Position numbers: made by a program
Assembly (NCBI GenBank): GCA_964248365.1
Contig: CAXTYC010000019.1
Location: 35,037-99,036 of the forward strand
DNA from: an uncultured Chroococcidiopsis sp.
Lineage (GTDB): Bacteria > Cyanobacteriota > Cyanobacteriia > Cyanobacteriales > Chroococcidiopsidaceae
Direction of reading: 5' to 3'
DNA: 64,000 nt
Part shown: positions 48,001 through 51,000 of the stretch, piece by piece
Position numbering within the stretch: the first letter of the stretch is position 1
How the letters are laid out: every line of letters starts with the position of its first letter

Positions 48001-51000
48001 TGTGGCTTTGCTATCTCAACGGGAGGATATTTCCGAAGAGGAAGCCAATAGAATTGTGGATCAATTTGAATCTGTCCGCAACTCGCTTGTCGAGCAAATT
48101 CAGCAAATCCAGCAAAGAGTGCAGTCTGTACTTGATGGAGTTTTTGGCAGAATTCGCAACTATCTCAACTCCCTGGATCGTCCTGAACTGAACTACGAAG
48201 GCATTGGGCAAGACTTTAAGAAAGTGTTTGACGATCCACAAGCGGGATTTGATGCATTGCGCGATCGTCTGGGTCAATTTGATCGTGGTACTCTGGTTGC
48301 CATCCTTAGCTCTCGACAGGATATTTCCGAAGAGCAGGCGCGGAGGATTATCGATTCTGTTGAACGAGCGCGGGATAATGTACTGCACCAAGCCGAACGT
48401 ATCCAGCAGGAAACTCAAAGACGCTTGAACTCGATCAAAGAGCAAACGAAAAAGCAAGCTCAAGAAGCCAAAAAAGCCGTTGCAGATGCAGCTTGGTGGC
48501 TATTTGGTGCGGCTATTACTTCACTAGCGGCAAGTGCTTTAGCTGGTTTCATCGCTGTAGCTGGCACACCTTTTTAGTGGAACCAGTTGGCTAGGTGAGG
48601 TATATTCTCGCTCCCAGGATACTCCAGGGATCTTCTCGCTCCCAGGCTCAGCCTGAGAGCGAGATTTTATTATTCAAGCAAGTAGGATGGTTGACGCGTG
48701 TGAATTGCAAGAGATTTAGTAGAACGTATCAAGCACAAGGGGCGATCGCCAACAATAGCCCCGACACCCAATTCTCTTGTGCTAGATTTGAACTGAGGTA
48801 GTTATAATACAAAGCTGTAGTATGGGTTCTGTATGCCCAACTGGTGCGCCTACTTATAGTATGAGCGTATACCGCGTGTGCTATGACTATTTCACCGTTT
48901 GATTAGCTCAATTGGAAGAGCTTCTGCCTCAAGGGCAGGATGTTACAGGTTCAAATCCTGTATCAAACTCCCGAAAGTTAGCTCATTTGGTAGAGCGATC
49001 GGTGTATCGCCGATCGGTAACAGGTTCGACTCCTGTACTTTCCACCAAAACACCCTAGTCCTGGGTTACGGACACCTTGTTAGGGACAAGGCAACTTCAC
49101 AGCTTAATTAACTGGTGTTGGGAAAAAAACCCAACTGGGAAAAACCCAATACTGATGTTTGTTTTATCACTCTGTCATGCAGGTGTTTTATAACAGTCAA
49201 GGAGCCAGCGCAAATGCAATTCTCCCTAACTTGAGTATGTCCTTCGTTTTCCAAATCCGTCTCTTTACGGAGATTGCTGGAACTGGCAAACTGAACGGCA
49301 TATTTGAGCGTTGTTTGCTGTTTGAGCGATCGCTCAAACAGTAGGGCAATCTTAATCCAGTTTTGGAGAACCTTTTGTCCGCACCGAACTGTAAAACCTT
49401 GCATTGGCAGAGTAAAAAATAGTTTGTATTATAATGTAGTATATTGAAGTAGGATTTGAGCGGGGATTACAAACCGCAAGGCTTGTAGCTATTGGCTGTT
49501 CTCGCACTCAGGCTGTGCCTGAGAACGAAAATTTAGAGGCTCAGCCTCTTTTGGCAAAGAAGCTATCAAAAAGACAAATGTTTTTATCCATTTTGAGTTG
49601 GGTGAAGCTACCCAAATTATCTATTCAAATTTCTATGTGGAAAACCTTTTATATTAAACCTAACGAGATTGGAATTTTATATCACCGCAGCGATTTTAAG
49701 AAAATTTTGCAGCCTGGAACTTACACTTATTTTGGTCGCCATTGGCAAGTAATAACTTATGACCTCAACCTGCCAGAAGCTAAAATTGATAATTTAGAAT
49801 TGTTGCTAAGAACCCAAAGCGACGTACTGCAAGAATATCTATTGATTGTTAGAACAACTTTCAATCAAGCTGCTTTAGTACGCTGCGGTCAAAATTGGGT
49901 AAGCGTCGCACCAAATCAACTTCGCGCTTTTTGGCGTGGTTATATTGATGTTGAATCCCACATTTTCAATTTAGAAGAAAGCTTAGAATTACCTACTCAG
50001 TTCGTCCAGCAATTGCGTGGAATCGCCTTAAACGGACTGAAAAAATTCCAAATTTCCGAATCTGAAATTGGTTTACTATACATTCAAAATAACTTTGTTC
50101 GACCTCTTGAAACAGGGGAATATGCTTTTTGGAGTGTAAATAAAGATGTTACAGTGAGGACTCTCAGCCGGATTGTGCCTAACCCAGACTTTCCCCTGGA
50201 AGATGTACTAATTGAAAAACATCCTGATTTTGTCAGCGCTTATTGTGTAATTGTACAATTACAAAATCAGCAAGTGGCAATTGTGCGGTATTTGGGTAAG
50301 GTTATTTCTATTTTGCCACCGACAAGCCGTAAGTTATTTTGGCAAGGTGTGGAAGTGGAAGTTATCGACATCAGCAGCAATGCCAAGTTACCACCTGAAG
50401 GGGTGGCTCAATTACTTTCGGGTTCCAAAGAAGTTCTATTACTGGGTCACAATAGTTTGCATATTTGCGAAGTACCCGCGCAGCACGTTGGCTTGTTATA
50501 TGTCAATCAAGAGTTTCAAGCGCAACTACAGCCAGGAATACACGCTTGGTGGTTGTTTGGACGCTCGTTTCAAACCGAAGTATTTGACTTGCGTTTGCAA
50601 AATATTGAAGTATCCGGTCAAGATATCCTCTCGAAAGATAAAGTACCTCTGCGCTTAAATTTAACTGCTGGTTTCCGTATTCAAGATCCACTCAGAGCAA
50701 AAAACAGTTTGTCAGATATTTCTGGTTTCTTGTACAAAGAAGCTCAATTTGCTTTACGCGCAGCAGTTGGCGAAAAAACTTTGGATGCCTTATTAGAAGA
50801 TAAAGGCGCGATTGATAAAAGTGTAGCTGAATATATTCGTACCAAAAGCGCAGACTATGGAATTGAAGTAGATTCCGTAGGGGTGAAAGATATTATTTTA
50901 CCTGGCGAAATTAAGACTATCTTGAGCAAGGTAGTAGAAGCAGAAAAAGCCGCTCAAGCAAACGTAGTCAGACGTAGAGAAGAAACCGCAGCTACCCGCA

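Follow-up and report, generated by a model that had tools for sequence, protein, structure and literature searches.

A structured RNA linked to tRNA-like units, an SPFH protein gene and, at some loci, a retron-type reverse transcriptase in Cyanobacteriales

The DNA between two tRNA-like units and an SPFH (slipin-type) gene of an uncultured Chroococcidiopsis sp. contains a genuine non-coding RNA gene on the plus strand, at positions 49166-49417 (all coordinates refer to the window, i.e. the whole stretch of 64,000 nt that was analyzed). The element consists of a closing stem, a long rod formed by its 5′ and 3′ parts, an arm A with a conserved base, and a variable arm B. It is conserved, its structure is supported by covariation, and it is absent from the databases and the literature that were searched. 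It is linked to the tRNA-like units, to the SPFH gene and, at a part of the loci, to a retron-type reverse transcriptase (RT). With moderate confidence, we regard it as the RNA component of a new, retron-like cassette with an RT and an SPFH protein. Such a cassette would comprise one to three tRNA-like modules, the element, a repeat-bearing SPFH protein of the cage type and, at some loci, a dedicated short RT, here called RT-S.

Structure, covariation and strand of the element

The plus strand of 49165-49417 has a predicted folding energy of −94 kcal/mol and a z-score of −7.68, and none of 200 shuffled sequences folded equally well, while the z-score of the minus strand is −4.32. The copies of the element have lengths of about 250-300 nt. 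Covariation was quantified in two alignments, A1 with 32 copies and A2 with 53 diverse copies of <90% identity, and the values were compared with those obtained after sliding the 3′ partners. The fractions of paired cells are 87.3% for A1 and 87.6% for A2, versus 36.8-41.5% and 35.6-42.7%, respectively, for the slid registers, a comparison that favors the unslid register because the structure was taken from thermodynamic ensembles of the same sequences. Double changes are found in 66 of the 107 pairs of A1 (26-32 after sliding; 36.0 ± 3.5 after shuffling, with 0 of 500 shuffles as high) and in 68 of the 111 pairs of A2 (35-45 after sliding; 40.7 ± 3.7 after shuffling, again 0 of 500). The covariation score of A2 is 0.222, compared with 0.050-0.078 for slid registers.

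An earlier survey of this genome had placed a structured element between the tRNA-like units and the SPFH gene and had described compensatory changes in it. The location is borne out by the fold (z −7.7) and by the covariation on 53 copies, and the compensatory changes also hold for the two larger sets. A long-range closing stem was likewise part of the survey's finding; the stem is present, with about 18-20 bp instead of the 17 bp that had been given. This terminal helix has 18-20 pairs and 92.4% of its cells are paired, with double changes in 10 of 18 pairs (A2). Long-range helices link the 5′ and 3′ thirds of the element. The sequence of arm B varies and its pairing is kept, with double changes in 17 of 23 pairs (A2).

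The alignments also show the invariant blocks, separated by variable hairpins, that had been reported. One near-invariant block is TTGAGTATGT (49231-49240, plus strand); another, TCTTAATCCAGT (49350-49361, plus strand), has invariant or near-invariant columns and lies where the rod meets the arms, in part without pairing. The conserved block GAGCCAGCGCAA (49202-49213, plus strand) is a candidate context for a retron priming G. All 53 copies share the G at 49208, within GAGCCAGC (an invariant column, G44 in the first A2 sequence), and the pair 81:276 is G-C in all 53 sequences of A2.

The assignment to the plus strand, which had been based on G-U pairs, was corroborated in A2: 792 cells are G-U and 180 are A-C, and 87.6% of the cells are paired when read on the plus strand, versus 76.2% on the minus strand. 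At the pair 107:183, G-U is found in 52 of the 53 sequences, and at 109:181 in all 53. A cmscan search of 48300-49800 against Rfam 15 (E ≤ 10) returned only the two upstream tRNA matches and rows at chance level; the element matches no Rfam family, those of retron RNAs included.

Distribution and genomic neighborhood

The occurrence of the element was determined with R1, a covariance model of 105 positions that covers the 5′ domain and arm A. The copy in the window has a score of 104.8 bits at 49193-49308 (196.9 bits with nhmmer). Among 151 sampled genomes of the phylum Cyanobacteriota 8 are positive, all of them in one order, and a shorter model, built for this analysis, thus reproduces the earlier count. 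Within the order, 17 of 151 genomes are positive; weak copies, or copies that comprise only the 3′ part, may be missed by R1 in both samples. All 17 positive genomes of the latter sample contain a full-length SPFH orthologue with at least 71% identity, and only one genome, G087, has the SPFH gene without an R1 match; it is a congener of the weakly scoring G033. The RNA is therefore present in 17 of the 18 genomes with the SPFH gene, the number of genomes with the RNA alone is zero, and about 131 of the 151 have neither. The near-perfect co-occurrence, together with the majority of genomes that have neither, characterizes a patchy accessory cassette, which is confined to one cyanobacterial order among the genomes sampled. 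It is present in culture strains of Nostoc, Anabaena/Trichormus, Calothrix, Fischerella, and Chroococcidiopsis.

The SPFH gene adjoins the element in 82 of 87 loci, so that the tie to the SPFH gene proposed by the survey stands on the level of both loci and genomes. The next feature after the element (n = 91 copies) is the SPFH gene in 55 cases, an RT gene in 11, an OmdA gene in 8, and further tRNA-like units in 5. At least one tRNA-like unit is found within 520 nt upstream of 81 of the 91 distinct copies, in agreement with the tRNA-like genes described before. The downstream Tab2 gene shows synteny with the element in none of the 87 loci. The search of plasmids yielded a single match, a tRNA-like one of 72 nt to Paenibacillus. 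A single pattern match in viral contigs was rejected as a chance match, because neither the element nor a cassette protein accompanies it, and 12 of 80 pattern-match loci among genome contigs were discarded as chance matches in other phyla.

The literature search found no paper that describes the element or a retron that has tRNA-like units or an SPFH partner. The key terms are absent from the main text of Geissler et al. 2026 (PMC12873609), the supplement of which may contain the element, and no relevant passage was found in Brenes-Alvarez 2016 (PMC4734099). The "retron-RT" of a Trichodesmium transcriptome paper was rejected, because it is a DGR enzyme.

A dedicated clade of short reverse transcriptases

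For 78 loci with at least 2 kb of upstream flank, the presence of an RT gene was evaluated. An intact (near-full) RT lies beside the element in 18 loci and fragments are found in 6 more, while 54 have none. The linked RTs match Pfam RVT_1, and their best PADLOC model is RT_XIII, with 498 and 509 bits (next model 299, versus 498). The linked RTs of the relatives carry the signature of the retron clade, i.e. NAxxH in region X, YADD, and VTG in region Y: of four RTs examined, all have NAxxH and YADD, three have VTG, and the fourth has ITG.

In a tree of 60 RTs, the 15 short RTs form one clade (RT-S, SH-aLRT 96), and 15 of 15 are encoded beside the element. Their called lengths are 347-422 aa, of which the largest are probably due to start sites chosen too far upstream. 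Among the 45 long RTs, 41 have no link to the element, and their loci contain neither the element nor an adjacent upstream tRNA-like unit. The sole ARAGORN call in these 41 loci is a Val-gac gene (L204). The element directly precedes the RT start in 9 of the 15 RT-S loci, while the RT is located upstream of the tRNA-like units in the other 6. In 8 of 11 element-to-RT junctions, the in-frame ATG of the RT follows the element after 17 nt; a promoter would not fit into this gap, a situation known from msr-msd-RT transcripts.

The linkage to a retron-type RT and the existence of a dedicated clade of short RTs led us to change the classification of the element. The survey's "new RNA class" is too simple a label, and the element is instead taken to be the RNA of a retron-like cassette. 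It would be the retron-style partner of RT-S, as a scaffold and probably as a template, and the SPFH protein would be the third component; reverse transcription of the element and a contact with the SPFH protein are both conjectural steps of this proposal.

The likeness to retrons is greatest for type XIII, or RT clade 10 (Mx162, Mx65, Sa163, Ne144), on the model of which the linked RT scores best. Type XIII RTs are described as the vertically inherited Mx162 group (PMC7736814), and also the inheritance of the cassette looks partly vertical. The element is of a similar size class (the Mx162 primary transcript has 241 nt; PMC6868368), its ends are paired in a long stem, the 18-20 pairs of which would correspond to the inverted repeats a1/a2, and a third gene always accompanies the system. 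With Mx162-type RNAs the likeness is one of RT and description. The priming G stands in the context CAGC or GAGC in Mx162, Sa163, and Mx65 (PMC6868368), with which the invariant G in GAGCCAG(C/T)GC of the element may be compared; however, the candidate at 49208 is located inside the extended rod, whereas the priming G of a retron, in a (T/C/G)AGC context, would stand where a1/a2 end on the inner side. Further differences are that tRNA-like modules precede the element, that the RT can be encoded upstream, that most loci keep the RNA but lack the RT, and that helices between the 5′ and 3′ thirds replace the textbook arrangement of msr hairpins and one msd hairpin. The partner protein is also different: the partners of type XIII retrons are SWIM/winged-helix and HEAT/ARM proteins (PMC7736814, Table 1), while an SPFH protein is absent from the retron partners of that table and has no PADLOC model.

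In the congeners of the window's organism, the RT-S gene immediately precedes the tRNA-like pair; in one of them it is a pseudogene. The window contains no RT remnant detectable with tblastn (best E 0.17), and RT-S has been lost from this genome. The element could thus act there only with the SPFH protein or with the long paralogue RT-L, which is encoded unlinked on another contig (C24). The 301 nt upstream of the RT-L gene fold with a z-score of −1.8, and no conserved sequence that could represent a partner RNA was found up- or downstream of 42-43 long-RT genes. An RT of the linked family (E ≤ 1e−60) is lacking in 6 of the 17 element-positive genomes (G033, G055, G094, G132, G149, and G102, the latter being 79% complete). 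The element scores in these genomes like in RT-bearing ones, i.e. 83-105 bits for five of them and 48 bits for G033, and thus has an RT-independent role.

The SPFH protein and its relation to the major vault protein

The SPFH gene g03012 is located at 49635-51161 on the plus strand, with a likely ATG start at 49635 (the gene caller had chosen the GTG at 49515). Its orthologues at NCBI have 508 aa, and for this form no membrane anchor is predicted. The protein is composed of five tandem β repeats of ~65 aa, an SPFH domain, and a long helix. It matches Pfam Band_7 (PF01145, 2e−29) and no Pfam Vault repeat, and the Band 7 domain with a coiled-coil helix behind it identifies it as an SPFH/stomatin protein (slipin). 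PADLOC and NCBIfam contain nothing specific for the SPFH or OmdA proteins. The comparison with the PDB gave PH stomatin (1.3e−21; VIA Z 14-16.6).

An AF2 model (pLDDT 77.7) was used for structural searches. With the whole chain, the best Foldseek match is chain 9r86, a major vault protein (MVP; E 1.9e−13, 582 columns), and most of the highest-ranking matches are to MVP over 570-630 columns, with stomatin in between. VIA aligned the whole chain with MVP at Z 10.2-11.4 over residues 70-462, with an rmsd of 10-16 Å. The modeled whole-chain fold therefore resembles MVP. For the N-terminal repeats alone, Foldseek found no PDB match with E ≤ 0.001, the best being MVP with E 7e−3, and VIA gave Z 5.6-5.8 for SPFH1 subdomains and 3.1 for MVP R1-R7.

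Likenesses to vaults are the SPFH protein, in which tandem β repeats are combined with an SPFH "shoulder" and a long helix, and the small structured RNA that is genetically tied to it. On the other hand, a signal for MVP is not found on the sequence level, where Pfam detects only Band_7, and the repeats alone are not significantly MVP-like. Vault RNAs are eukaryotic pol III transcripts of ~100 nt and bear no likeness to the element. True bacterial homologues of MVP have been described (10.1101/872010), and they are different, longer proteins than the one encoded here.

A different reading, tentative and in our view rather improbable, is that the element is a structural, cargo or regulatory RNA partner of an SPFH/vault-like cage that works independently of an RT, the RT being a later and dispensable acquisition or a mere neighbor at a hot spot. 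It would account for the co-occurrence of the RNA and the SPFH gene described above, with no genome that has the RNA only, for the equally good conservation of the element in genomes without an RT, and for the recurrent loss of the RT, of which the fragments in 6 loci and the old paralogous copies are signs. It would also fit a protein that lacks a predicted membrane anchor and has a fold most like that of MVP, as vaults carry RNA (10.1101/872010). However, RT-S is found only beside the element and, in 8 of 11 junctions, begins 17 nt behind it, which is hard to credit to chance. In addition, the N-terminal repeats alone gave no significant structural match.

A retron-like cassette thus remains the preferred reading, and it can be combined with the cage into a bolder proposal, to which we attach a low probability. 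A soluble, vault-like SPFH shell would hold, or be organized by, the element, which would be released from a tRNA-punctuated precursor, and in some lineages the dedicated retron-type RT would copy the element into DNA. If true, this prokaryotic RNP cage would give the vault/telomerase-type RNP theme a counterpart in bacteria, with a retron RNA that has a life of its own. The retron-like reading itself, if it holds, would link three things that had not been connected before: a retron-type RT of the Mx162 group, the biology of which is obscure, non-decoding tRNA-shaped modules, and a vault-like SPFH protein. The retron concept would then be extended to an RNA that outlives its RT, is made from a tRNA-punctuated precursor, and has a cage-forming scaffold as a partner, and SPFH/vault research would gain a bacterial system for genetic tests of an RNA partner.

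The junction with the downstream gene and expression

The survey had left two possibilities, a new large structured non-coding RNA or a giant leader of the stomatin mRNA. The former is upheld, while the latter is weakened, because copies also precede RT genes, OmdA genes or tRNA-like units and because a promoter-like site precedes the SPFH gene. The site, TTGGCA-17 nt-TATTAT (49404-49432, plus strand), agrees with the scan at 10 of 12 positions. It precedes the SPFH gene and shares sequence with the 3′ strand of the closing stem of the element, so that its −35 box lies inside the stem. It is followed by a conserved A-run and the motif TTGTAKTAT (to 49447, plus strand); the motif aligns in nearly all loci and, in RT-bearing Nostoc loci, holds the start codon of the RT.

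No run of an RNA library contains the window's own sequence (shares 0.05-0.09), and contigs of relatives were available from four runs. One contig of run X1 covers 49163-49413 and ends there, another of this run ends at 49417, and a contig of run X5 starts at the 3′ end of tRNA-like unit 2 and reaches about 49403; such contigs cannot show strand or true ends, and libraries can hold DNA. The region 49414-49583 is not covered by the relatives' contigs in any of the four runs, which proves nothing. Expression of the element is weakly supported by these metatranscriptome contigs.

It is unlikely that the element is a cis-acting leader, i.e. a very large regulatory 5′ UTR of the next gene, be it for the SPFH protein, OmdA or the RT. 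The constant arrangement, directly upstream of and in the same orientation as the next gene, would be typical of a leader, and the lack of an intrinsic terminator after the element in the window scan would allow read-through. Nevertheless, 5 of the 91 copies precede tRNA-like units and another copy instead of an open reading frame, there is no relationship among the three downstream genes, and an expression platform (sequestration of an SD motif or a terminator) is not visible. The promoter-like site with its −35 box in the closing stem argues against a leader as well, as do, weakly, the two library contigs that stop where the element has its 3′ end.

Integrity and coding potential of the copy in the window

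The absence of RT-S from the window, without a remnant, and the pseudogene in one congener could mean that the element has become a functionless, decaying relic of a retron in this genome. We consider this very unlikely, since the copy is among the best-scoring ones and has kept every conserved block and helix, since copies from RT-less genomes belonging to several families are equally intact, and since the alignment that revealed the covariation (A2) is made up mostly of RT-less loci.

The gene caller had annotated an open reading frame of 98 aa, g03011, on the minus strand opposite the element (49108-49404), which the survey regarded as false; it had also noted hairpins that come and go in steps other than multiples of three. 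Both points hold: relative to the window, the congeners show indels of 1, 13, 1, and 1 nt, a stop-free frame of any kind spans the element in only 3 of 32 copies, and g03011 has no Pfam match. As no reading frame is kept, g03011 is spurious, and although the open frame exists in the window, the chance that the conservation reflects a real small protein gene is negligible, given also the compensatory substitutions in helices and the G-U pairs on the plus strand.

Leader, tRNA-like units and spacer

A conserved leader (48777-48896, plus strand) precedes the tRNA-like units and is a candidate for the promoter and the 5′ end of the precursor, with the sequence TATAAT at 48803-48808, at which a simple promoter scan made no call. 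Homology with two congeners begins at 48777 (79% identity); upstream of this position, the window has an unrelated gene for 1053 aa and the congeners have the RT. Ends of the relatives' RNA-library contigs cluster at 48806-48814 (runs X4, X5, and X6), which is a weak hint.

Unit 1 (48897-48971, plus strand, 75 nt) is read by ARAGORN as Leu-caa and has 61.6 bits with the Rfam tRNA model, but it lacks the long variable arm that the reading as Leu implies, and its orthologue in the congeners reads Tyr-gta. Unit 2 (48972-49047, plus strand) is read as Ile-tat, has 47.3 bits and a mismatch at 1:72, and ends with an encoded discriminator A plus CCA (49044-49047). Both units exceed the gathering score of 29. 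A CCA is encoded after the last tRNA-like unit in 66 of 81 loci. In 153 calls, 34 different anticodon readings were obtained, malformed loops included, and the units thus have neither a stable anticodon identity among orthologues nor the architecture of the respective tRNA class. They preserve the D and T arms, the acceptor stem, and the CCA without a stable anticodon. The spacer between the units and the element (49048-49165, plus strand) contains small conserved hairpins, and the block CCCTNGTCCNGGG and the next hairpin align across loci. The stretch 48808-49165 folds with a z-score of −4.1.

tRNA genes that are co-transcribed with other RNAs are known from tRNA-punctuated precursors, and mascRNA-type release is a further example. 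Similarly, the tRNA-shaped units flank the element on the same strand and would be substrates of RNase P and RNase Z. The element would most probably be co-transcribed with the units and then freed by the tRNA-processing machinery, a release that the survey had also proposed. A difference is the degeneracy of the units' anticodon loop, and most of them have an encoded CCA.

The combination of a non-decoding tRNA-like module with a structured RNA is also reminiscent of YrlA, a bacterial Y RNA (RF02553). However, the YrlA match spans the junction of the tRNA-like units and reaches only 20.7 bits (E 0.22), versus a gathering score of 69, and the cassette contains no TROVE gene. A TROVE (Ro-like) gene with a YrlA-like match beside it is present on another contig of the window's genome.

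A structured RNA linked to an SPFH gene

The element (positions 49166-49417, + strand) is preceded by two tandem tRNA-like genes and followed by a Band_7/stomatin-type gene (Pfam PF01145, 2e-29), here called the SPFH gene. Its + strand has a folding energy of -94 kcal/mol and a z-score of -7.68, compared with -4.32 for the minus strand. A cmscan against Rfam 15 (E<=10) returned tRNAs alone, in agreement with the survey's finding that no Rfam family is matched.

A consensus structure was built from averaged base-pair probabilities of single sequences. The 5′ and 3′ thirds pair into a long interrupted rod, ending in a terminal helix of 18-20 pairs with an optional hairpin within its 5′ strand, and there are two arms besides. 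In arm A the base is conserved, GAGUAUGUCC pairing to GGCAUAUUUG, and the tip varies; the sequence of arm B is variable. Among 32 copies, 87.3% of the cells are paired and 66 of 107 pairs carry double changes, versus 36.8-41.5% and 26-32 with the partner slid and 36.0±3.5 double-changed pairs after shuffling (0/500). The corresponding values for 53 copies <90% identical are 87.6% and 68 of 111, versus 35.6-42.7% and 35-45 (slid) and 40.7±3.7 (shuffled, 0/500), with the caveat for both sets that the structure was derived from the same sequences and that kinship among them inflates the shuffle test. The element is a real new structured RNA. There are 792 G-U cells against 180 A-C cells, which identifies the + strand as that of the RNA, as the survey had called it. 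The minus-strand ORF g03011 was likewise correctly dismissed there: a stop-free frame crosses the element in only 3 of 32 copies, and indels of 1 and 13 nt separate the copies of congeners. The ORF is therefore spurious, no frame being conserved.

Distribution was estimated with R1, a 105-position covariance model of the 5′ domain and arm A. Of 151 genomes sampled within the order, 17 contain the element. In the phylum sample it was found in 8 of 151, reproducing the earlier count, all from this same order, and in 0 of 108 genomes from families absent from the order sample. When 301 genomes of the order were searched by BLAST, 35 of them, representing 21 of 119 genera, had the element. Two conserved blocks were also combined into an IUPAC pattern, which matched 121 stretches in named species genomes. 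Of these, 80 were examined with flanks; nhmmer recovered the element in 68, the other 12 being chance matches in other phyla. The 68 belong to Nostoc, Anabaena, Trichormus, Dolichospermum, Nodularia, Cylindrospermum, Calothrix, Tolypothrix, Scytonema, Fischerella, Stigonema, Richelia, Chroococcidiopsis, Aliterella, Cyanosarcina, Waterburya, Microcoleus, Kamptonema, Crinalium, and Floridaenema.

Of 87 loci, 82 have the SPFH gene after the element; three of the five exceptions end at contig edges. A full-length orthologue (68-85% identity) is present in 18 of the 151 order genomes, i.e. the 17 R1-positive ones and G087, which belongs to the same genus as the weak-scoring G033, so that the proposed tie to a stomatin gene holds. 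Fragments of the orthologue occur in two further genomes. SPFH paralogues of 41% identity are present in one family, which is devoid of the element. Because element and gene co-occur in the same few genomes, the pair is a patchy accessory cassette rather than a housekeeping gene that sometimes has a leader.

tRNA-like units and flanking signals

Both tRNA-like genes were called by ARAGORN, with Rfam tRNA scores of 61.6 bits (unit 1, 48897-48971, +) and 47.3 bits (unit 2, 48972-49047, +). At least one unit lies within 520 nt upstream of 81 of 91 distinct element copies, and 66 of the 81 last units encode CCA. Anticodons are read in 34 different ways among the 153 calls, and some loops are malformed. 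By our reading of the calls, two sequence types recur, one resembling initiator tRNA. The parts recognized by processing enzymes are thus kept and the decoding part is lost, suggesting that the units may act as processing signals.

Contigs from RNA libraries give weak hints only of expression, all from relatives, the window's own sequence occurring in no run. Contigs in four libraries cover leader, tRNA-like units and element. Two in library X1 stop at 49413 and 49417, one in X5 extends from the end of unit 2 to ~49403, and the region 48806-48814 has a cluster of contig ends from X4, X5, and X6. The terminal helix shares part of its 3′ strand with a promoter-like site (49404-49432; TTGGCA, 17 nt, TATTAT).

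Similar short repeats that form hairpins, CTCGC.C(C)CAGGCT..GCCTGAGA.CGA, bracket the tRNA-like/element module at 48601-48675 and 49488-49530; in appearance they resemble the small dispersed repeats of cyanobacteria. On contig C21 of the same genome (L232/L233), tRNA-like modules have a second, separate use: a TROVE (Ro60-like) gene there is accompanied on the same strand by a YrlA-like match (35.6 bits, under the gathering score of 69, E 4.7e-5) and tRNA-like matches.

Relation to retrons

At loci with two element copies, ~1.8 kb apart, the ORF between them encodes an RVT_1 protein with PADLOC best model RT_XIII (498 bits; next model 299 bits). All four reverse transcriptases (RTs) examined contain NAxxH and YADD, together with VTG in three and ITG in the fourth. 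Four layouts were found: RT, two tRNA-like units, element, SPFH gene (in two congeners of the window genome, and in a third with an RT pseudogene); RT, element, three units, element, OmdA, SPFH gene; units, element, RT, unit, element, SPFH gene; and, in the window, units, element, SPFH gene. In the 78 loci whose upstream flank extends for at least 2 kb, the RT is near-full in 18, fragmentary in 6, and missing in 54.

In a 60-RT tree, the short RTs (347-422 aa as called, the starts of the longest calls probably being too far upstream) form one clade (SH-aLRT 96; 15 rows), 15 of 15 beside an element. The remaining 45 rows are long RTs of ~467 aa with an N-terminal extension, 4 linked to an element and 41 unlinked. 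The unlinked loci have neither an element nor an adjacent upstream tRNA-like unit, their sole ARAGORN call being a Val-gac gene in L204, and no conserved flanking sequence was found around long-form genes. Long RTs occur in many genomes of the order; counting short and long forms jointly, 77 of 301 genomes have such an RT. The window genome has only the long form, a stand-alone gene on contig C24 (L172 7806-9209; 467 aa, N-terminal coiled-coil extension) that adjoins a ZnuABC operon, with no structured RNA (z -1.8), tRNA-like unit, SWIM or HEAT partner beside it. The window contains no RT remnant; homology with the congeners starts at 48777, downstream of the end of their RT.

The RT position is occupied in the window by a 1053-aa ORF (45416-48577, +) with hydrophobic ends, ~ten tandem repeats of ~85 aa (...EELNPEGI...LLEDP...L..RLSQFDR.TLV.LLS.R.D.SEE...), and only sub-threshold Pfam matches. 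In several genera, an OmdA/YdeI-domain gene (196 aa; PF13376, 8e-22) is inserted between element and SPFH gene (L040 2662-3249; also L156, L157, L160, L161, L166, L084, L088, and L056).

Of 11 junctions between an element and an RT, 8 have an in-frame RT ATG 17 nt past the element, within a conserved TTGTAGTATG motif, which would match the way retrons place RNA and RT on a single transcript. Mx162, Mx65, Sa163, and Ne144 were assigned to type XIII, described as having a distinct RNA structure and as showing signs of being inherited vertically (Mestre et al. 2020, PMC7736814), and putative cyanobacterial RTs were grouped with Mx162-type RTs, for which a 241-nt Mx162 primary transcript and the priming-G contexts CAGC and GAGC are described (Simon et al. 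2019, PMC6868368). For comparison with these contexts, the element has an invariant G in GAGCCAG(C/T)GC, a candidate priming G, but it lies away from where the terminal helix ends on its inner side. Several points speak against a pure retron: the RNA is intact in 6 of 17 element-positive genomes with no RT at E<=1e-60, old paralogous copies persist, and the fold is unlike the textbook msr/msd layout. The classification that fits the element best is that of the RNA component in a new cassette of retron-like type that includes an SPFH partner, the RT having been lost in the window genome. The survey's new RNA tied to an SPFH protein is thus real, and is better placed within such a cassette. Retention of the RNA calls for a role, together with the SPFH protein, that does not depend on the RT.

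The SPFH protein

An AF2 model (28 sequences, pLDDT 77.7) predicts five five-stranded repeats, each of ~65 aa, together with an SPFH domain and a long helix. With the whole chain, a major vault protein (MVP) chain ranked first in Foldseek (E 1.9e-13, 582 columns); the top ranks were mostly MVP chains (570-630 columns) with stomatin interleaved, and stomatin, HflK, and prohibitin covered ~240 columns. VIA gave Z 14-16.6 against SPFH domains and 10.2-11.4 against MVP across residues 70-462 (rmsd 10-16 Å). The first four repeats alone (pLDDT 81.4) had no significant structural match, with MVP at E 7e-3; VIA gave Z 5.6-5.8 for single repeats against SPFH1 subdomains and 3.1 for the repeats against MVP R1-R7. 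The modelled build is vault-like, these whole-chain and repeats-only matches stopping short of MVP family membership.

Directly downstream of the SPFH gene in the window is a Tab2/Atab2-type RNA-binding protein gene (51199-52029, +; both Pfam domains, 1e-55 and 6e-43), which is next to the element in none of 87 other loci. Longer forms of the repeat-bearing protein (610-675 aa, 56-70% identical) occur in metagenomes (P0001, P0003, P0006, and others).
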